Assembly (NCBI GenBank): GCA_963809485.1
Contig: CAWEJX010000006.1
Coordinates: 96,001-160,000 of the forward strand
Length of the DNA: 64,000 bases
Reading direction: 5' to 3'
Source of the DNA: an uncultured Acidobacteriota bacterium
GTDB taxonomy: Bacteria > Acidobacteriota > UBA6911
In this document: positions 10,894 through 56,324 of the stretch, piece by piece
Layout: every line of letters begins with the position of its first letter
How positions within the stretch are numbered: the stretch's first letter is position 1
Notes under the pieces: model-generated
What the model was told of the DNA's origin: nothing
What the model saw: only the letters and a program-made list of their open reading frames with translations
Databases searched by the model: none
Program-made: the position numbers and the translations under genes

Positions 10894-11685
10894 ATGAATC
10901 GCGATAACTGGGTAAAATCGATGGGCCTGGATGTGGATGGCAACCTGTTCGTCGAAATCGACAACGGGATAAAACTATACGACCTGTGCCTGAATCACCC
11001 CCTGCCTGCTCCTGTGGAGATCCATCCCAGGGACCTGATGAAGACTGAAAACCGGCCGTTATACAATCGCTATCTCACGACCCTCAATGAGATCGCCGGA
11101 GTCATGATCCATCCTTCCTATGATGCGCGCTACCGTTTCCGGGGCGGGGACATCGTCGTGGACGCCGGAGCCCGCATCGGAACCTTTGCGGCCAAAATTT
11201 CCGCAGCCGTCGGCGAGAAAGGCAAAATTATCGCTATCGAGCCTGAACCGCGCAACTTTGCCTGCCTCCTCAAGAACATCAAAGCAAACAATCTGACCAA
11301 TGTTCTTGCGGTCCCCAGGATGCTCTGGAGCCGGGAAGAGCAGCGGGACCTGTACCTTTCAGAGTACACGGCGGCGCACAGCGCCTATTTCGATGAATTC
11401 TATCAATCCACCGGAGAGCACATCTGTGTCGATGCGGACTCGCTGGACCACATCCTGGAAAGCCTGGGCACAGGGCCGGCGGATTTTATCAAGATGGACA
11501 TAGAAGGCGCGGAAATCGAGGCCCTCGCAGGGATGAAAGTCGCGCTTGAAACCGTGGGGCAGATGGCCATCGCCGCCTATCATCCGGTTGATGGAAAGCT
11601 CACTCACAGGGTGATCATGCCCCAGCTCGAGCAACTCGGCTTCAAAACCACCTATTCCGACGGGATAGTGCACGCGCAACGATAA
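10894..11685 (+). CDS. FkbM-family SAM-dependent methyltransferase
   Basis: VVDAGARIG, AIEPEP, FIKMDIEGAE. Confidence 0.88.
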   Translation: MNRDNWVKSMGLDVDGNLFVEIDNGIKLYDLCLNHPLPAPVEIHPRDLMKTENRPLYNRYLTTLNEIAGVMIHPSYDARYRFRGGDIVVDAGARIGTFAAKISAAVGEKGKIIAIEPEPRNFACLLKNIKANNLTNVLAVPRMLWSREEQRDLYLSEYTAAHSAYFDEFYQSTGEHICVDADSLDHILESLGTGPADFIKMDIEGAEIEALAGMKVALETVGQMAIAAYHPVDGKLTHRVIMPQLEQLGFKTTYSDGIVHAQR

Positions 11686-12085
11686 TTACATTGGTAAACC
11701 CCCGGCTCTGACGGGGGACTCAAAGAGTTTGACAGCTCCGTATTTTGAAACGCTGAGAAACGCTGATAAAAGCGCTGACAAACACCGATTTGTTCGGCGA
11801 GGGTCGGCGAGCAAAAGCCGATGAGGCGCTTCCGATGGAGTTTTCTGCGGCGGCACTGTGGCAAGCGTCCGGTTTCTCATACCCTTCATCTGCTTGCCGC
11901 ACGGCGCTTGCCACAGTGCCGCCGCAGAAAACTGTCCAGCGCGGAGCGCTGGCCCCTGCGGGGGATCGGAAGCGCCTCATCGGCTTTTGCCCGCGTAAGT
12001 CAGCGTTCAAGACCGGCGTAACTAGTCCAACCGCTTTAAGCGGTTCAAATCTTTCAAGCCTCAGGCTTTGCCGGAGGTGCCTGAC
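11683..12085 (+). mobile_element. non-autonomous palindromic element with IS200/IS605-like ends, copy 2 (longest, nested hairpins)
   Basis: Same ends as the other copies; perfect 26-bp IR 11811-11836/11965-11990 enclosing a perfect 29-bp IR 11839-11867/11905-11933. Confidence 0.78.
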
Positions 12086-12086
12086 T

Positions 12087-26509: not shown

Positions 26510-26735
26510 TAATTCTATTGGTAAATCTGCGGCTCTGCCGGGGGACTCATAGAGTTTGACAGCTCCGTATTTTGAAACGCTGAGATACGCTGACAAAAGC
26601 GCTGACAAACACCGATTTGTTCGGCGAGGGTCGGCTTTTGCCTGCGTAAGTCAGCGTTCAAGACCAGCGTAACTCCTCCAACCGATTTGAGCGGTCCAAT
26701 CTTTCAAGCATCCGGCTTTGCCGGAGGTGCCTGAC
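26510..26735 (+). mobile_element. non-autonomous palindromic element with IS200/IS605-like ends, copy 3
   Basis: Same ends and core; the internal hairpin is almost wholly absent. Confidence 0.75.
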
Positions 26736-41839: not shown

Positions 41840-43681
41840 ATGGCAATTCCCAGTTGTTACGCAGGCAAGGTACTGTTCGTCAATCTGGCCGAAGGACAGA
41901 TCCGCGAGGAAGTCCTTCCGGAATCTGTCTACCGGGAATTCATCGGCGGCAACGGCTTGGGTATCCGCGTCCTGTACGAGAGAATGAGGGCGGGGGTTGA
42001 CGCGCTGGGACCGGAGAACATTCTGGGATTTGTTGTCGGCAGCCTGACCGGCACCCCGTCGCCGGGAAGCGGGCGGCACATGCTTGTAACCAAATCTCCT
42101 CTGACCGGCACCTGGGCGGAATCCAACTCGGGAGGGACCTTCGGCCCCGAGCTGAAAACGGCGGGCTATGACGCCATATTTTTCTCCGGAATCTCTCCCA
42201 GCCCTGTCTGCCTGTGGATCAGGGATGGTAAGGCCGAACTGAAGGATGCCTCCGGGTTATGGGGGAAGGACGCCTATGAAACCCAGGATTTGCTGCAGTC
42301 CTGGGGAGACCGCGCCATGAAGATTGCCTGCATCGGACCGGCGGGCGAATCCCTGTCGCTGCTGTCGGGTGTCGTCAGCGAAAGGGGCCGGATCGCCGCC
42401 CGCAACGGCGTAGGCGCGGTGATGGGATCCAAGAGGTTGAAAGCGGTTGCCGTAAAGGGCGGCGTTCGATCGATCGTGCCCGCCGACAGGGAAAAATTTA
42501 ATGGCGCGATACGGCAGTTCCTGGAGATGATCCACAACAACGAATACGCCAAAGGGCTGGCCGCAGCCGGTACCGGAAAGGATATAAGCTTTCTGGTCGC
42601 AATCGGGGACGCCCCGCTCAAGAACTGGCAACTGACCGGGCTGGAAGCTCTCCCGACGCTTACCAACCTCGATGGCGCCAATATGGACAAATACAAGGTC
42701 AGCAGCTTCGGCTGCTACGGCTGCCCGATCACCTGCGGCGCCATCATCAGGCAAAATGAGGGCCCGTTTGCCATAAAGGATGAAATGCACCGTCCCGAGT
42801 ATCAGTCGCTGGCGGCCCTGGGCGGGATGCTGATGAACGACAACCTTGAAGCGGTCATCAAGGCCAATGATATCTGCAACCGCTACGGCATCGACACGAT
42901 GGGCGTCGGGGGCACGATTGCCATGGCGATGGAGTGCTATGAGAACGGGTTGATCAGCAGGGAAGACACAGACGGCATCGATCTGACCTGGGGGAACGCC
43001 GAGGCGATCGTGGCACTGGTGGAAAAAATCGCCAGGAGAGAAGGATTCGGCGCGGTTTTGGCGGATGGGACGCAGAAAGCCGCGGAGCGTATCGGCAAGG
43101 GCGCGGAAAAATATGCCGTCGCCATTCGCGGGAAAAGTCTTGCGTATCATGATCCGCGCATGTCCCCGTCGCTCGGCACGGCAAATATAGCCGATGCCAA
43201 TCCCGCGCATCACATGGACAGCCAGATTACGGGCATGCTGAGCGAAGGCGCGCCCATTGGTTCGGATCCGGCGTTGCAGCCTCCCAAGCAGAATCAATTT
43301 GCAGGCTATGCCATCGGCAGCGCCTACCACCAACTGCTGAACGCGGCCGGGTTTTGCTCGTTGTATACGGTGGCTACCACCCCTCCTCCCCTGGCCGACC
43401 TGATGGCCGGCGCAAGCGGCTGGGAATTCGGCTGGGACGAAGCGCTGAAGGCGGGGCGCCGCATACTGACGCTCAGGCAAGCATTCAATGCCCGAGAAGG
43501 CTTGACCCCGGACCAGTTCGAGTTGCCCAAGCGAATCGCGTCGACCGCCAAAATCGATTATGGGGCGCTGAGAGACGGATACTTCAGGGAAATGAAGTGG
43601 GACGTCCAATCAGGCAAGCCTTTGCGGGAAGCGCTGTCTGATTTGGACCTGATTGAATTGACACGTGATTTGAGTGTTTAA
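41840..43681 (+). CDS. aor: aldehyde:ferredoxin oxidoreductase (tungsten AOR family)
   Basis: TKSPLTG, IGPAGE, GAVMGSKRLKA, CYGCPITC, PEYQ, CNRYGIDT. Confidence 0.92.
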   Translation: MAIPSCYAGKVLFVNLAEGQIREEVLPESVYREFIGGNGLGIRVLYERMRAGVDALGPENILGFVVGSLTGTPSPGSGRHMLVTKSPLTGTWAESNSGGTFGPELKTAGYDAIFFSGISPSPVCLWIRDGKAELKDASGLWGKDAYETQDLLQSWGDRAMKIACIGPAGESLSLLSGVVSERGRIAARNGVGAVMGSKRLKAVAVKGGVRSIVPADREKFNGAIRQFLEMIHNNEYAKGLAAAGTGKDISFLVAIGDAPLKNWQLTGLEALPTLTNLDGANMDKYKVSSFGCYGCPITCGAIIRQNEGPFAIKDEMHRPEYQSLAALGGMLMNDNLEAVIKANDICNRYGIDTMGVGGTIAMAMECYENGLISREDTDGIDLTWGNAEAIVALVEKIARREGFGAVLADGTQKAAERIGKGAEKYAVAIRGKSLAYHDPRMSPSLGTANIADANPAHHMDSQITGMLSEGAPIGSDPALQPPKQNQFAGYAIGSAYHQLLNAAGFCSLYTVATTPPPLADLMAGASGWEFGWDEALKAGRRILTLRQAFNAREGLTPDQFELPKRIASTAKIDYGALRDGYFREMKWDVQSGKPLREALSDLDLIELTRDLSV

Positions 43682-43785
43682 TTCTATTGGTAAACCCACG
43701 GCTCTGCCGGGGGACTCATAGAGTTTGACAGCTCCGTATTTTGAAACGCTGAGATACGCTGACAAGAGCGCTGACATACGCTGAC
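43679..43785 (+). mobile_element. left-end-only copy 4 of the palindromic element
   Basis: TAATTCTATTGGTAAACCCACGGCTCTGCCGGGGG...CGCTGA repeats, then homology stops. Confidence 0.72.
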
Positions 43786-43830: not shown

Positions 43831-45114
43831 CTAATTCGTTGCTGCTTTGCGGAGTGCGAGAGCGAGGATATCGAGGGCCTGGTCGATCTGCTGTTTTGAA
43901 ATCACCAGCGGCGGCTGAAACCGTAAGACGTTTCCGTCGATGCCCCCGCAACCGACCAGCAACCCATCTCGCAGGCATGAATCCCGGACAGCTTCGGCTT
44001 CGGCAGCGGCAGGCGTCAGCGCGGTGTCCTTCACAAGCTCGATCCCAATCATGAGGCCCAGGCCGCGCACATCGCCGATGAGGGAAACCCGTTGCCGGAG
44101 TTCGCAAAGCCGGGATTTGACGTAGTCACCCATTTCGGCCGCATGCCGGCAGAGATTCTCTTCCTGCATAAACTCAATGTTTGCGAGAGCCGCCGCGCAT
44201 GAAACGGGATTGCCGCCGAAGGTGGACAGATGATCGCCGGGCTTGTAGGCGGCGGCTATTTCCGGGCGTGTCGTAAAGGCGCTCAGCGGAAATCCGTCGG
44301 CGATGCCCTTGGCTGTCACGAGGATGTCGGGCACAACGCCAAAATGCTCAATGGCGAACATCTTGCCGGTACGGGCAAAGCCGCACTGGACTTCATCCGC
44401 GATGAAGAGGATTCCGTGCCGGTCCAGTATCTTCTTTACCTCCTCGAAGTAGTTGAACGGCGGAACTATGATCCCGCCCTCACCCATCACGGGTTCGGCG
44501 ACAAAGGCGGCCACGTCGCCGGATGTGGAAAAGCGGATGACGTCCTCGATCGCTTTTGCAAAGTGCCGGCCGCATTCGTCCGGGGCGTCGCAAGGGCGCG
44601 AGCGGTAGGTATAGGGTGCGGGGGCGAAGGCGACTCCGGGCGCATAGGGGCCGCCGCCTTTCTTCCGGTTTTTGTTGCCCGTGATGCTGAGCGCCCCCCA
44701 GCTGCGGCCGTGGAATCCGGCCTGCAAAGCAATGAATTCGTGCCTGCCCGTGTAAAGGCGGGCGAGCTTCAGCGCTCCCTCGATCGCCTCGGCTCCTCCG
44801 CTGCCGAAGAAGGATTTCGTCAGGCCCGAAGGCGCGATATGCGCAATCTTTTCCGCCAGGTCCGCCGTCGGTTGGACGTGATAAAGATAGGAGGAGCAGT
44901 GGATGAGCTTCTCCATCTGAGCTTTGGCTGCGGCCACCACCTTCGGACTGCAGTGGCCGGCATTGACCACCGAAATGCCGGCGAAGCAGTCTATGTAGTC
45001 CCGGCCCTCGATATCCCGAATCACCGCACCGCTGGCTTTGTCGACTACGATCGGGGCGACGGACTTCAGGAAACCGGTAATGACGTAATTCCGATATTTC
45101 TCAAATGTATCCGT
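43831..45114 (-). CDS. class-III PLP aminotransferase (GABA/ornithine aminotransferase-like)
   Basis: YIDCFAGI, SGGAEA, FHGRS, EPVMGEGG, ADEVQCGF.RTG, AKG; homology extends 30 codons upstream of the GTG at 45024 to an ACG. Confidence 0.9.
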   Translation of the reverse strand, partial: TDTFEKYRNYVITGFLKSVAPIVVDKASGAVIRDIEGRDYIDCFAGISVVNAGHCSPKVVAAAKAQMEKLIHCSSYLYHVQPTADLAEKIAHIAPSGLTKSFFGSGGAEAIEGALKLARLYTGRHEFIALQAGFHGRSWGALSITGNKNRKKGGGPYAPGVAFAPAPYTYRSRPCDAPDECGRHFAKAIEDVIRFSTSGDVAAFVAEPVMGEGGIIVPPFNYFEEVKKILDRHGILFIADEVQCGFARTGKMFAIEHFGVVPDILVTAKGIADGFPLSAFTTRPEIAAAYKPGDHLSTFGGNPVSCAAALANIEFMQEENLCRHAAEMGDYVKSRLCELRQRVSLIGDVRGLGLMIGIELVKDTALTPAAAEAEAVRDSCLRDGLLVGCGGIDGNVLRFQPPLVISKQQIDQALDILALALRKAATN

Positions 45115-45158
45115 AACTAGTACCTCTTAAACTCGTCTGACGGCCGCCTGCCGGAATC

Positions 45159-46889
45159 CTACCTCCATTTGTCCACGGAAGCGCTCGATACATAGCCGAA
45201 GTCCCCGGCCTGCCAAAATAAATTCGTCCCGCCGCCCACCGAAAGAATGTTAATCACGGAGGGTCTGGCGAACTGGGGGATCTTGGCGTCTTTGGGCAGC
45301 TTGATCCTTGAGGCGAAGGGTTCCACGCCGCGACGGGCGTTAGGCAGAATAAAATTCTGCACGCTGTAAAAGTCATCCAGAAAATCCTGCACCGTGACCG
45401 ATGTGTTCTTGTAGATCCAGTCGATCAGCTGCTCTTTGGAATCGAAACCTTCCCTTTCTTTCAGCTGCTTGATGATGGTCGGATCCAGGAGCAGCGTTAC
45501 CGGCGAAAAGGGGCTCACGAATTTCAACCAGAACGGGATCTGTGTGTGGAAAGGTTTCCCGAAGCTCTGGTCCGGATGGGTGAATCCCCAGCCGTTGAAT
45601 GTGCTGACCACGCTTTCCTGGGGTTTGTGGCCTTTCTGCACATGGAACGGATTCCAACCGGGCGGCAATTCCTCCTCGTTTTCAGGCATGCAGAGATTGT
45701 TGTAGCTGTAATTATTTCCCTGGCTGCCCATGTACGTTTCCCCGATCTTACCCGCAGCGGCGAGGTTCATGGACATTATGGTCCAGGCCCTCCCGATGAC
45801 CGAATTGGCCTGGTTGAACGGACCGAGAGCGCCGATTCCGGCATTCATTTTTAATTCATTGCGGATCGGTCCGTTGACAACCACCATCCTCGCGAAAGAT
45901 GTCGTCGAGGTGAACAGAGCCGGCACTCCCGTGGACGCCAGGGACAGGATGACGGGGAAATGCTCCGGCCTGGCTCCGGCCATCACCGCGTTGACGGCCA
46001 CCTGTTCCACATTGTAACTCCAGGCTTCGTGGGGAGAGGACGGCTGCATCCTTCCGGCTTCCTCACCCGCTTTGCGGCTGGTGCCTTTGAGCATCTCGGC
46101 CACCCTGGCTTCCGTGGGCAGCACAATGGGCAGCCCATCGGTCCAGCCGTTTTCCAGGAAAAGGCGATGCAGGTTTTCCTCAGTATCGGGTTTGACCAGG
46201 CGGGCAGTCGGTCTCGCAATGAAGCCTGTTTTTCTATCCTCGTCAGACAGCGGAGTGGTCAGCGCCGCGATGGCCTCCTGCAGGACGGGCTTGCCGGTCA
46301 CCGGATCCTTGCCTTCCAGGTGTGCGCGGCACGCAGCGGCGGGGATGCCGGTGATGGGATGAGGCACAAATGTGAAGCGCATGTTGGGCATGCCCTTTTT
46401 AAAGGCATAGGATGTCACGAGGTCCTTGAACTTCCAGGTGGATATCGGGGCTGTGGGAACTCCGAGCTTTTCGACAGTCCAGCTGTGGCCGGCGACCGAC
46501 GGCGCGCAGGTGCTTCAATGCCCGACCCCCATGATCATGCCGTGACCCTTTTCCTTGATCTCCGCCCACAACTTGGGATCGTCGTCAAAATATGTCCCGG
46601 CTTTTGTCCGGACGACCCAGGTTGTATTGGGATATTTGGCGGACAGAAGTTTCTGCATTTCCGTAAAGAACTGGTGGGTGTCGGTAAAACCAATATCGAT
46701 AATGTAGATGGTTTTCCCTTCCAGGCCGTTGAGGCGCGGCGCCATGGGAACGCGCGTAATAGCCGGCGGCTGGCCCAGCGGGCTGAGGACGGTGAGCTTG
46801 GGCTCCTGAGCTCTGGATGTGCCCCAAAAGAGCGGGATTGCCAAAAGAGACATCACAAGGATTAAAGATCCGCCTGTTTTCCTTTTCAC
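45159..46889 (-). CDS. exported UGSC-family selenoprotein (576 aa with Sec at UGA 46515-46517)
   Basis: Two track ORFs are in frame and joined through one TGA, giving GVGH-U-STCAPSVAGH; signal peptide; C-terminal GWTDGLPIVLPT domain. Confidence 0.85.
46483..46514 (-). promoter_or_regulatory. candidate bacterial SECIS element
   Basis: After UGA: CUG..GCCG-U-C[GGUC]G-C-CGGC..CAG stem, with an apical loop starting with G ~17 nt downstream. Confidence 0.55.
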
Positions 46890-47135
46890 CGCTTATGCTC
46901 CTCCCGGGGTGATGAATGCTCCCGGCCCATCTTCTACTCTAGCAAAATTAAGCGTCCGGAAAAACAACTGTTGTGTAGCAATAGGCTGCTTCAGGCAAGC
47001 GGCAAATTGCGGATGTCCAGTCACAGCAGAAACCTTGTGACAAATGATGGTTAGTGTACAATGGGCGGTGAAATATACCTTTTAGCCGGCTAGCGGCTAT
47101 ACAAGCACAAATATATAAATTGAGGAGGCGCCGGA

Positions 47136-48413
47136 ATGGAATGCGAATATGCCTTTGAGATGGGCACTTCCAGCATACGCTTCGGCCCGGGCGTTACGCG
47201 GGAAATCGGAATGGATTTATCCCAGCTGAAGGCAAGGCGGGTGATGGTGGTCACCGATCCGAACCTTGCCGGGCTGGCGCCTGTGGCCGCGGTACTGGAA
47301 TCGCTGCAAAAGGAAAAGGTCGCCTATTCCCTGTTCGACAGGGTTTCGGTGGAGCCGACCGATATGTCCATGCGCGAAGCAATCTCCTTCGCGCAGCAAG
47401 GGGATTTCGATGCGTTTGTAGCCGTCGGGGGCGGGTCCTCAATGGATACGGCCAAGGCAGCCAATCTCTACTCCACGTACCCTGCCGATTTCCTTGATTA
47501 CGTGAATGCACCCATCGGCCAGGCCAGGCCGGTGCCCGGCCAGCTTAAGCCGCTTTATGCTGTTCCCACGACAGCCGGAACCGGCAGCGAAACCACCGGA
47601 GTGGTGATTTTTGACCTGTTGGAAATGCACGCCAAAACGGGGATTGCCCACCGAAACCTCAAGCCGACGCTCGGACTGATCGATCCTGAAAACACCCGGA
47701 CCATGCCGCCGCTGGTGGCTGCATCCACGGGTTTCGACGTGCTGGTCCATGCGCTGGAGTCTTACACCAATCTGCCCTACAACCGCCGCGAGCGGCCCGC
47801 GCATCCCATTCTGCGCCCGGCCTACCAGGGCCGCAATCCGCTCAGCGATCTCTGGGCCGCCGAGGTGATCCGCGTGGCGGCGCAATACCTGCCACGGGCT
47901 GTGGAAAATCCGGACGACGACGAAGCGCGTTCAAAAATGATACTGGCAGCTGCCTGCGCCGGTGTAGGCTTCGGCAACGCCGGACTGCACCTGCCTCACG
48001 GGATGTCTTATCCCGTTTCCGGGATGGTTCGTGATTATCATCCGCCGGGATATCCCGTTAAGGAACCTTTGATACCTCATGGCATAGCCGTGGTGCTGAA
48101 CGGCCCGGCGGCTTTCCGATTCACGGGGCCAGGCTGCCCGGAACGGCATCTTCAGGCGGCGGAATTCCTGGGCGCGGATATTTCCAGGGCCAAGGCGGCA
48201 GACGCCGGCGATATTCTCGCGGATCAGCTGATCCAATATATGCAGCGCCTGAAGATGCCCAACGGGCTCAAGGCGGTTGGCTACACGCCCGATGATATTC
48301 CGGCGCTGGTGGAAGGAACGCTGCCGCAGCACCGCGTGATCAAGCTTTCCCCCGTGCCGGTAGGCAGGGAAGAGCTGACACGGCTGTTCGAGAAATCCAT
48401 GGTTATCTGGTGA
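47136..48413 (+). CDS. hydroxyacid-oxoacid transhydrogenase (iron-containing ADH, ADHFE1-like)
   Basis: YAFEM..SSIRFG.GVT.EIG, GGGSSMDTAK, PTTAGTGSE, RPAYQG.NP.SD, HLPHGMSY, PHG. Confidence 0.92.
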   Translation: MECEYAFEMGTSSIRFGPGVTREIGMDLSQLKARRVMVVTDPNLAGLAPVAAVLESLQKEKVAYSLFDRVSVEPTDMSMREAISFAQQGDFDAFVAVGGGSSMDTAKAANLYSTYPADFLDYVNAPIGQARPVPGQLKPLYAVPTTAGTGSETTGVVIFDLLEMHAKTGIAHRNLKPTLGLIDPENTRTMPPLVAASTGFDVLVHALESYTNLPYNRRERPAHPILRPAYQGRNPLSDLWAAEVIRVAAQYLPRAVENPDDDEARSKMILAAACAGVGFGNAGLHLPHGMSYPVSGMVRDYHPPGYPVKEPLIPHGIAVVLNGPAAFRFTGPGCPERHLQAAEFLGADISRAKAADAGDILADQLIQYMQRLKMPNGLKAVGYTPDDIPALVEGTLPQHRVIKLSPVPVGREELTRLFEKSMVIW

Positions 48414-48524
48414 GGCTTTTAAGGCAGCCACCTATTTTGCGAATTCGTGAAATTTGTGGCTGCTTTTTGTTTTATTAATGGACATAGGGCGGCCATCGAT
48501 GGTTTTTGTCTGGAAGGATATCCG

Positions 48525-49457
48525 ATGCGAAAAAAGATTGCACTAGTGGGTGGAGGTCAGATCGGCCAGACGCTGGCGATGCTGGCGGCGATGAAGGAGC
48601 TGGGAGATGTGGTCATTCTGGATGTAGCCGCCTGCGAAAATTCCGTCAAAGGCAAAGCGCTTGACCTGATGGCCATGGCGCCGCACGGCAATTACGACGC
48701 GGAGGTTACGGGCACTTCGGATCCGCGCGGAATCGAAGGAGCTGATGTCGTGATCGTCACTGCCGGCAGGCCGCGTGATGCCGGGATGACGCCGAGGGAC
48801 CTGCTGGATATCAATTCCGGGGTCATTGCTGAAGTAGCCGGCAATGTGAAGCGGTATGCTCCGGACGCTTTCTGCATCGTCATCAGCAATCCTCTGGTTG
48901 AGATGGTGCACCTGTTCCACAAGCTCTCCGGTCTGTCCGGCAGGAAGGTTGCCGGAATGGCCGGAACTCTCGATGTAGCCCGCTGGCGGGCGTTTATTGC
49001 CATGGAACTGGGCGTTTCGGTCGAGGATGTCGCGGGAACAATCCTCGGCGGCCACGGCCCGGACATGCTGCCGCTTCCTCGTCTGACCACGGTAGGCGGT
49101 GTGCCCCTGATCGAAATCGCCACGAAAGAGCAGATCGATAGAATTGTCGAGCGGACCCGCGGGGCAGGCTCGGAAATCATGAAACTGTACGGCAAAGGGT
49201 CTGCCTTTTTCAGCCCTGCCTGGAGCGCCATTGCGATGGCCGAGTCCTTCATCAGGGACAAGCGGCGTGTGCTTGCCTGCATGGCTTTATGCGACGGTGA
49301 ATACGGGATTCACGGGCTTTACATGGGTGTCCCCGCCCTGATCGGTTCAAAGGGCGTTGAAAAGATATACGAAATCAGCCTGACCGGTGAGGAACGGGCC
49401 GAGCTCTCCAGAATTGCCGATGCCGTTGCGAAGCATGTGACGGAGTGCGGAATTTAG
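48525..49457 (+). CDS. LDH-like malate dehydrogenase-family protein with an altered active-site loop
   Basis: GGGQIG, VKGKALDL, TAGRPR..GM, MAGTLD.AR, GGHG, GSAFFSP. Confidence 0.85.
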   Translation: MRKKIALVGGGQIGQTLAMLAAMKELGDVVILDVAACENSVKGKALDLMAMAPHGNYDAEVTGTSDPRGIEGADVVIVTAGRPRDAGMTPRDLLDINSGVIAEVAGNVKRYAPDAFCIVISNPLVEMVHLFHKLSGLSGRKVAGMAGTLDVARWRAFIAMELGVSVEDVAGTILGGHGPDMLPLPRLTTVGGVPLIEIATKEQIDRIVERTRGAGSEIMKLYGKGSAFFSPAWSAIAMAESFIRDKRRVLACMALCDGEYGIHGLYMGVPALIGSKGVEKIYEISLTGEERAELSRIADAVAKHVTECGI

Positions 49458-56079: not shown

Positions 56080-56324
56080 TGATTCTATTGGTAAACTCCC
56101 GGCTCTGCCGGGGGACTCATAGAGTTTGACAGCTCCGTATTTTGAAACGCTGAGATACGCTGAAAAAAGCGCTGGCAAACGCCGATTTGTTCGGCGAGGG
56201 TTGGCGAGCAAAGGCCTCATCGGCTTTTGCCCGCGTAGGTCAGCGTTCAAGACCATCGTAACACCTACAACCGCTTTGAGCGGTTCCAATCCTTCAAGCC
56301 TCCGGCTTTGCCGGAGGTGCCTGA
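56080..56324 (+). mobile_element. non-autonomous palindromic element with IS200/IS605-like ends, copy 5
   Basis: Same ends; the internal hairpin is collapsed to GCAAAGGCCTCATCGGCTTTTGC. Confidence 0.75.

Follow-up and report, generated by a model that had tools for sequence, protein, structure and literature searches.

Does the TGA codon that separates two neighbouring open reading frames (ORFs) in an acidobacterial genome terminate translation, or does it encode a selenocysteine in the middle of a single, longer protein? The question arises at positions 45159 to 46889, on the minus strand, of the DNA analysed here: a stretch of 64,000 nucleotides, hereafter the window, from an uncultured bacterium of the Acidobacteriota lineage UBA6911 (assembly GCA_963809485.1, contig CAWEJX010000006.1, positions 96,001 to 160,000). 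The ORF 46515..46889 (-) ends with GVGH followed by the TGA, and the frame stays open via STCAPSVAGHSWTVEKLGVPTAPISTWKFKDLV into the ORF 45159..46418 (-). The initial annotation had joined the two ORFs to one frame of 576 amino acids with a U-S-T-C motif, and this is borne out by the sequence, the translation and the ORF list: If TGA is translated as selenocysteine (U), the product has 576 residues, followed by TAG, and carries the motif U125-S-T-C128 (G-H-U-S-T-C). Our work supports the idea that 45159..46889 (-) is one selenocysteine-containing gene of the architecture listed below, and we assign this reading a probability of about 85%. Judged by the sequence evidence, it is very probable that TGA codon 125 encodes selenocysteine and that the product is a selenoprotein. 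The features of the locus are:

45159..46889 (-): whole putative selenoprotein gene, 576 codons plus TAG (45159-45161), GTG start at 46887-46889, a single in-frame TGA
46899..46904 (-): Shine-Dalgarno-like GGAGGA, 9 nucleotides upstream of the GTG, proposed from reading the sequence
46809..46889 (-): predicted Sec-type signal peptide, residues 1-27 (MKRKTGGSLILVMSLLAIPLFWGTSRA/QEP), from the sequence, the N-termini of orthologs and a heuristic
46323..46790 (-): UGSC domain, residues 34-189, matched by PF24696; predicted local distance difference test score (pLDDT) mostly >90 in the AlphaFold2 (AF2) model, modelled as flavodoxin-like alpha/beta
46515..46517 (-): TGA codon 125, read as selenocysteine; TGA at the same column in 43 paralogs, 21 orthologs and homologs from several phyla
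46506..46508 (-): Cys128, the U-x-x-C partner of the selenocysteine; invariant in a 38-sequence alignment and kept in 36 of 39 selenocysteine paralogs
46488..46503 (-): hairpin resembling a selenocysteine insertion sequence (SECIS), nucleotides 15-30 counted from the U of UGA; GCCGUC-GGUC-GCCGGC with the GGUC loop G21 G22 U23 C24 at 46494-46497
45162..46238 (-): C-terminal domain, residues 218-576, holding ENGWTDGLPIVLPTE, from the alignment and the AF2 model

An in-frame open stretch of 32 codons is possible by chance, and the read-through frame is therefore not decisive alone. The one-gene reading is decided by homology that crosses the stop, i. e. by the match to the Pfam UGSC domain and by orthologs in the same genus. 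Pfam UGSC (PF24696) covers residues 34-189 across codon 125 with 87.9 bits against a cut-off of 25, and the domain alone scores 90.4 bits. Our set of relatives comprised 41 genomes including the source genome G000, and 24 of the others belong to the same genus. Matches were present in all of these 24, and 21 of them have an ortholog with 70-96% identity and exactly one in-frame TGA each. The 32-codon bridge from one ORF to the other shows in-frame conservation in both orthologs and paralogs, there are no frameshifts or extra stops across the 576 codons, and the ORF search of the genome scored the open frame as 577 amino acids with one TGA.

More distant homologs carry either TGA or cysteine at the aligned position, and both kinds were found: (i) A TGA in the motif column is present in 79 distinct homologs, as G-H-U-S-[TS]-C in 37 of them and as G-U-x-x-C, mostly G-G-U-D-G-C, in 42. 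Their records bear the labels Acidobacteriota, Dehalococcoidales, Gaiellales/Thermoleophilia, Methylomirabilota/Rokubacteria and Desulfobacterota. (ii) A profile search of 1.84 billion representatives yielded 6699 relatives, and 37 near-full-length sequences among the best 150 were aligned. Cysteine occupies the column in 14 of the 37, in twelve cases as C-x-x-C (e. g. VGH-C-STC-AP) and in two as the only cysteine of the motif; the remaining sequences have S, M, A, T, G or H. As C-x-x-C homologs exist, the classic pattern of selenocysteine and cysteine at one position is present in this family.

The initial annotation had implied that the selenocysteine machinery is encoded elsewhere in the genome, and selA (565 bits), selB (391 bits), selD (346 bits, with an in-frame TGA of its own) and a tRNA-Sec (70.6 bits; called SeC with anticodon tca by ARAGORN) could all be located. 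These genes sit on contigs C1, C8 and C20, which bear paralogs too, and on C19. A second match to the tRNA-Sec model is found at G000:C20:1138408-1138497 (50.9 bits, gathering score 47). TGA terminates 660 of 1627 long ORFs and outnumbers TAG and TAA; this argues against a genome-wide reassignment of the codon. Finally, contigs of four other public runs bridge the place of the TGA, and among the differences listed for them there is none at this place, which speaks against a reading error.

For recoding, a signal in the mRNA is expected, and the initial annotation had proposed a hairpin with a G-starting apical loop behind the UGA. Such a hairpin is present and conserved, even though, as discussed below, it is weaker in the window gene. 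In the closest paralogs, the 16 nucleotides from position 15 onward, counted from the U of UGA, are GCCGGC-GGUC-GCCGGC, and in other subfamilies of the paralogs this position is taken by quite different stems with the loops GUG, GUU, GUC or CGUGA. In the GGUDGC group (42 sequences, 39 of them distinct), 95.6% of the cells are paired, as compared to 23-68% in slid controls; two of the seven pairs are compensatory (UA to GC in nine sequences, GC to CG in two), and the covariation score was reached by none of 500 shuffles. Moreover, the synonymous-codon entropy of codons 130-135, which form the hairpin, is 0.26 bits as compared to a mean of 1.31 bits for the gene, the lowest of 150 windows along the gene in 32 distinct orthologs. 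This indicates a constraint at the RNA level at the expected spot. The SECIS of Escherichia coli fdhF is a hairpin that starts about 11-15 nucleotides past the UGA, within the coding sequence, with a GGUC loop in which G and U contact SelB. The hairpin of the window shares the GGUC loop and the distance, with the loop one nucleotide nearer to the UGA. It differs in the stem sequence, and the clade of the window gene has U.C or U.U two positions before the loop and no bulged U.

What had been missed by the initial annotation is that the window gene is one of about 43 selenocysteine-encoding paralogs in this genome. A search of the genome with the protein gave matches at 74 places. When the genome was re-read with TGA open, 66 ORFs matched, and 43 of them have a TGA at the aligned motif G-x-U-x-x-C/A. 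Among the 50 paralogs with both domains, which are just 27-58% identical to the window protein, 39 have selenocysteine and eleven have S, A, G, L or T but never cysteine at this position; Cys128 is present in 36 of the 39 as compared to none of the eleven. The paralog motifs follow U-[SDGPWH]-x-C, and three have U-G-A-A. Pfam UGSC alone identifies 58 places in the genome, 40 of them with one TGA, and none in 14 control genomes. The expansion is shared within the genus: one TGA is present in 31 of the 35 matches in G012, a closed genome of one contig, and in 19 of the 23 matches in G015. In 200 other genomes drawn from the phylum, the UGSC domain occurs in 15, with one or two copies each and mostly in open frames of 185-270 amino acids.

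Some members of the family deserve a separate mention. Three tandem paralogs at G000:C4:340996-348037 carry S-W-U-G-A-A-T; they have kept the selenocysteine, lack the cysteine at +3, have R367 replaced by K, and possess a different hairpin, with a GUC loop. A clade of full-length homologs has leucine instead of selenocysteine (G-I-G-Q-L-D-T-C) together with an insertion of about 30 residues in the C-terminal domain; it includes L078, L079, L082 and L084-L087, labelled Acidobacteriota or Dehalococcoidales, and G000:C12:100155-102215, which has D-T-N. The loci L125, L126 and L127, labelled Dehalococcoidales or Dehalococcoidaceae, contain two to four TGA-bearing members within 8-14 kb; clusters of selenocysteine paralogs thus exist outside the genus, too. 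A small ORF of about 170-200 residues has six copies in the genome, five of which are situated downstream of G-H-U-S-T-C paralogs; it is absent beside the window gene. Its copies are L138 (G000:C12:194464-195078), C12:197145, C12:204284, C12:205205, C21:97058 and C4:161056; L138 has an N-terminus resembling a signal peptide and no Pfam match.

The number of selenocysteine genes in the genome is of the same order as in the largest published bacterial selenoproteomes, for which the relevant passages of PMC12013277 and PMC13188914 give 39 in Syntrophobacter fumaroxidans, 43-46 in Desulfosediminicola, 57 in the Olavius Delta-1 symbiont and 63 in a metagenome-assembled genome of Methylomirabilota; in the portion on the Olavius data set, multi-gene selenoprotein families hold two to twelve genes. 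Those large selenoproteomes are spread over many families, whereas the 43 TGA-bearing genes found here come from one. Relatives of the window family also occur in records of Methylomirabilota (L102, L121). Two genome-wide scans for other selenocysteine genes were of little use: a codon-usage scan recovered only four of the 43 known family sites, and a scan for TGA/Cys self-homology was dominated by hits to a high-copy repeat and to paralogs in the wrong frame. The likely further genes in this noisy scan encode a [NiFe]-hydrogenase-like R-I-C-G-V-U, an MvhD-like C-C-E-F-U, an NADH-oxidase-like S-T-A-A-U and a rhodanese-like T-U-N-T-G-R-R; the loci, selD included, are G000:C1:~340226, C3:~6567, C9:~115374, C20:~925295 and C8:80982-81905.

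How is the protein built? The AF2 model of the whole protein, computed from the 38-sequence alignment, has a pLDDT of 87.4 and a predicted template modelling score of 0.86. Around the site, a beta-strand (117-123) is followed by a turn and a helix (128-141). The initial annotation had called the UGSC domain thioredoxin-like, and the literature regards the family as likely thioredoxin-like, as far as the passages on it go. This view is not supported by the model: The best structural matches to residues 55-219 are flavodoxin-, CheY-, B12-binding- and Rossmann-like chains with Z scores of 8.3-10.6 (e. g. 8s7v_H, Z 10.6, root mean square deviation 4.1 over 137 residues, and 7te2_A, Z 9.8, 2.5 over 113 residues), and thioredoxin is absent among the 50 best listed, which does not exclude families beyond the list. 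The domain thus models as flavodoxin-like alpha/beta and is not recognisably thioredoxin-like. For the second half of the protein, the initial annotation had used the name GWTDGLP domain, a label of its own: neither Pfam nor NCBIfam has a model that matches the C-terminal part. Its 359 residues, modelled separately, reach a pLDDT of 81.6. No Pfam match was obtained even at E<=10, a sequence profile search of the PDB was empty, Foldseek returned nothing at E<=0.001 for the C-terminal domain or the whole model, and a protein atlas search with the C-terminal ORF as translated with table 11 found only truncated clusters of the own family. The C-terminal 360 or so residues are strongly conserved, have no recognisable relative and match no solved fold. 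As there is no recognisable solved relative, a structure would probably be informative. None of the 50 two-domain paralogs, with or without selenocysteine, deviates at R52, E140, D251, P258, M303-A304-G305, P312, G340, N362 or E403.

The N-terminus has the layout of the Sec-type signal peptide that had been claimed: MKRKTGGSLILVMSLLAIPLFWGTSRA/QEP has a basic n-region, a hydrophobic core of 15 residues and S-R-A ahead of the proposed cut, and a basic-hydrophobic-SRAQE N-terminus is common to the orthologs. Residues 1-24 have a pLDDT below 50 in the AF2 model. A crude heuristic was positive for the window protein and for 38 of the 50 paralogs; two of the twelve negative ones have twin-arginine motifs, and several paralogs have a lipobox-like cysteine. 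From these sequence features, the protein is probably exported. Distant homologs from other phyla begin directly at the conserved K-I-T-V-L-x-P-x-G-Q and therefore look cytoplasmic.

Several observations weigh against our interpretation. For the hairpin of the window gene, the stem has a U19.C26 mismatch, and the pair 19-26 is open in 26 of 34 distinct sequences of its clade, in which pairing reaches 81.4% and covariation is absent. The 71 nucleotides after the UGA are no more stable than shuffled sequences (z +1.5), and another hairpin is formed in the minimum free energy (MFE) fold. Compared to windows of the same gene, the hairpin energy is at or below the 5th percentile in 15 of 43 paralogs, and the window copy is at 0.19. 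An E-value scan of 44000-48000 with Rfam revealed no SECIS family, just two chance matches to snoRNAs. Folding energy alone is a poor test for a SECIS in this GC-rich gene, and what supports the SECIS of the window gene is its conservation, not its stability. With respect to expression, none of the listed runs that hold the stretch is recorded as RNA; one run with a contig across the TGA is labelled RNA-Seq, a label that is a guess, and was not counted as expression. The source genome (6.04 Mb in 21 contigs, 95.7% complete) has an estimated contamination of 7.3%. The signal peptide heuristic is permissive and has a high background, being positive in 122 of 400 control ORFs. The eleven of 50 paralogs that lack both selenocysteine and cysteine at the site indicate that the conserved core has some function independent of a selenol. 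Two further results bear on the mechanism: the best matches of the C-terminal domain to solved structures are a Z score of 5.0 over 77 residues (VIA-align) and an E-value of 0.045 (Foldseek), and there is no constant partner gene across the neighbourhoods of the paralogs, the loci of the genus and the distant loci.

A pseudogene, or a TGA due to an assembly or sequencing error, might be suspected in a metagenome assembly with such contamination, but can practically be dismissed given the same TGA in 21 genomes of the genus, in the closed genome G012 and in 43 paralogs, the contigs of four other runs with no difference listed at this place, and 576 codons without a frameshift or further stop. 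It is also very improbable that the TGA is a true stop that leaves an exported fragment of 124 residues and a separate protein of 419 residues starting with the GTG at 46418. This is how automatic annotation cuts the gene everywhere: the databases contain 7114 or more matching proteins at E<=1e-10, of which the best 120 are all C-terminal fragments of 407-446 amino acids that cover 71-77% of the query and are called "hypothetical protein" where named. The unremarkable stability of the window hairpin would fit this idea as well. However, both the UGSC domain and its confidently modelled fold cross the TGA, and a fragment that ends there would miss the helix after the active-site turn. Moreover, the bridging 32 codons are kept in frame in orthologs and paralogs, the cysteine homologs are single uninterrupted proteins, and synonymous codon choice hardly varies immediately behind the TGA.

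What might the selenoprotein do? Our evidence strongly supports a recoding of UGA codon 125 by the SelA, SelB, SelD and tRNA-Sec of the genome, directed by the GGUC-loop hairpin 15-30 nucleotides downstream, within the coding sequence. The resulting protein has three parts, i. e. the predicted Sec-type signal peptide, the UGSC alpha/beta domain with U125-S-T-C128 placed at the turn from beta-strand to helix, and the C-terminal domain of about 360 residues. It is tempting to speculate that the latter binds a small organic substrate through D251, N362, R367 and E403, that the selenolate of U125 attacks or reduces this substrate, and that C128 resolves the adduct to a selenenylsulfide. An external thiol system would then re-reduce the protein, thioredoxin in the case of cytoplasmic relatives and a DsbD/DsbA-type periplasmic system in the case of exported ones, and the paralogs would differ in their substrates. 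Judging from the conserved residues, a redox or nucleophilic enzyme seems rather likely. The specific reductase cycle, borrowed by analogy from GrdB/PrdB-type chemistry, is less likely than not to be correct in this form. In the glycine, sarcosine, betaine and D-proline reductases, the selenocysteine of GrdB or PrdB attacks the substrate, the neighbouring cysteine forms an Se-S bond, and thioredoxin restores the enzyme. The window protein shares the U-x-x-C motif with GrdB and PrdB, and PrdB is listed as UxxC in a table of PMC2398784. In contrast to these proteins, the window protein has no sequence relation to them, no pyruvoyl partner subunit was seen nearby, and it is predicted to be exported rather than cytoplasmic. 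The GrdB/PrdB family PF07355 was not matched: at E<=10, residues 30-215 match only Pfam UGSC, and the C-terminal domain matches nothing.

One alternative, to which we give a small chance, is a selenoenzyme without net redox change, such as an isomerase, racemase or lyase, in which the selenocysteine would act as nucleophile or base and C128 as second catalytic residue. The neighbouring genes, mostly for the metabolism of 2-oxo and 2-hydroxy acids, aldehydes and CoA esters, would fit this idea; they include class III aminotransferase, aldehyde ferredoxin oxidoreductase (AFOR), short-chain dehydrogenase/reductase (SDR), ILVD/EDD dehydratase and CoA-transferase III genes. In the genus, genes for NuoE/F-like proteins and a ferredoxin are followed by those for a methyltransferase and an SDR, and the selenoprotein gene; beyond it come a class III aminotransferase gene, in 8 of 28 loci, and, on the other strand, an AFOR gene, in 7 of 28. 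Of the 49 distant loci, 13 have an SDR gene as neighbour, more than for any other gene, and second place is taken by ILVD/EDD dehydratase with 7. Other paralogs have xanthine-dehydrogenase-type molybdoenzymes, FAD enzymes, TonB-type barrels, CoA-transferases, esterases and amidohydrolases as neighbours. Also, the three SW-U-GAAT paralogs retain the selenocysteine without the cysteine at +3. On the other hand, selenocysteine and Cys128 are otherwise kept or lost together, and the redox pairs of CxxC/UxxC proteins classically show this U-x-x-C spacing at a turn from strand to helix.

Similarly improbable is an exported selenoprotein that is no enzyme at all, but would act in the periplasm as a receptor for solutes or bind metals or metalloids, with the U-x-x-C serving as soft-ligand or covalent-capture site. 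The expansion would then resemble that of solute-binding protein families, with massive paralogy and N-termini like signal peptides or lipoboxes; genes for TonB-dependent-type outer-membrane barrels and for MFS and ABC proteins are near some paralogs, and eleven of the 50 paralogs have lost the redox pair while keeping the conserved core. Three lines of evidence argue for an enzyme rather than a binding protein. First, the charged or polar residues R52, E140, D251, N362 and E403 are invariant in 50 very divergent paralogs, as is typical of catalytic sites. Second, the relatives in other phyla lack a signal peptide and, judged by the N-terminus, are cytoplasmic. Third, the presence of Cys128 follows that of selenocysteine (36 of 39 versus none of eleven). 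In addition, a transporter gene is nowhere a constant neighbour, and the C-terminal domain resembles no known binding-protein fold, although a missing match is weak evidence.

A redox or nucleophilic selenoenzyme, as favoured here, would belong to a family that is known in part. UGSC selenoproteins and a "UGSC/Unknown_1" fusion were published in 2007-2008, the fusion in PMC2398784; the passages on the family in PMC2398784, PMC1976440 and PMC13188914 give its function as unknown, and PMC2398784 counts it, in its section on these data, among the commonest selenoprotein families of the ocean and freshwater metagenomes of the Global Ocean Sampling. The window protein resembles the UGSC family (PF24696; NF041046; the "UGSC-containing protein" of Zhang and Gladyshev) in its N-terminal domain and in the position of U-x-x-C. 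The known UGSC protein is small and stand-alone, about 150 amino acids for an NCBIfam profile length of 147. In contrast, the window protein is a fusion of 576 residues with a predicted signal peptide and U-S-T-C, a motif that departs from U-G-S-C with the U-x-x-C spacing retained. It scores 66.3 bits with the equivalog model NF041046 for the small UGSC protein, as compared to the curated cut-off of 125. The membership in the UGSC family that had been proposed thus stands for the Pfam domain and the U-x-x-C spacing, and fails for the U-G-S-C motif, the NF041046 score and the small size: the window protein is a domain-level relative, not an equivalog, of the small UGSC protein. Like the fusion from the Global Ocean Sampling (PMC2398784), which is described there for aquatic organisms, it combines UGSC with a conserved domain of unknown function. 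The architecture is probably the same, and Unknown_1 may be identical with this C-terminal domain; unlike the family of the window, the fusion is presented in the passage on it with no mention of a signal peptide or of paralog expansion. In the literature searched, no paper was found for GWTDGLP, "UGSC family" or "UGSC-like", for selenoproteins linked to UBA6911, or for an exported subfamily, an expansion to dozens of selenocysteine genes or a C-terminal domain without relatives; fusion and expansion may nevertheless be in print. At the level of the domain, this kind of protein is known already, and the exported subfamily, its expansion and the C-terminal domain without a solved relative appear to be new.

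As a tentative proposal, which may well turn out differently, an uncultured genus with Acidobacteriota labels that include the UBA6911 lineage would use 19-43 selenoenzymes per genome, for the most part periplasmic and all from one two-domain family with an unsolved C-terminal fold. If true, no larger expansion of a single selenoprotein family would be known, and together with SelD and the other selenocysteine genes the expansion would place these genomes among or atop the largest bacterial selenoproteomes. It would also define a new class of selenocysteine-dependent, substrate-specialised catabolic enzymes that are systematically cut in two by gene callers, and corrected gene models for these fragments would alter selenoproteome counts in many lineages. 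The insertion of selenocysteine is costly, and selenoproteins are generally believed to be few for this reason. As many as forty selenocysteine codons in one family would challenge this view and imply a heavy selenium demand in anaerobes of wetlands, soils and digesters. The expanded, mostly exported fusion offers natural variation in substrate specificity, in selenocysteine versus cysteine and in the loss of the redox pair, as well as neighbourhoods to mine; the genus thus provides a handle on the function of the common but little-understood UGSC family.

A few observations concern the surroundings of the gene. In the window, genes for an iron-dependent alcohol dehydrogenase and an Ldh/Mdh-like protein (47136-49457, plus strand) lie between the SDR and selenoprotein genes, an arrangement that is not part of the gene order of the relatives. 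Orthologs with 71-73% identity are present at the loci L056, L071, L073 and L095, which are labelled Desulfobacteraceae, Desulfatiglans, Desulfatiglandales or delta proteobacterium; these Desulfobacterota-type labels reflect either mislabelling or gene transfer. At these four loci, genes for a DsbA-like and an MFS protein are located just upstream, TonB_C is encoded downstream in three, and a family of about 376 residues is repeated upstream and, in three of the four loci, also downstream. The genome also contains a repeat of about 400 nucleotides in approximately 150-225 copies (431 blastn high-scoring segment pairs), the ends of which are more abundant than the middle. In the window, it is found in full at 11683-12086 and in part at 2428-2554, 26510-26635, 43679-43776 and 56087-56216. 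A longer form of about 800 nucleotides is present in some 32-40 copies, and the repeat looks like a miniature inverted-repeat transposable element (MITE) or a repetitive extragenic palindromic (REP) element. One of the partial copies lies between the AFOR and aminotransferase genes, just downstream of the selenoprotein gene.

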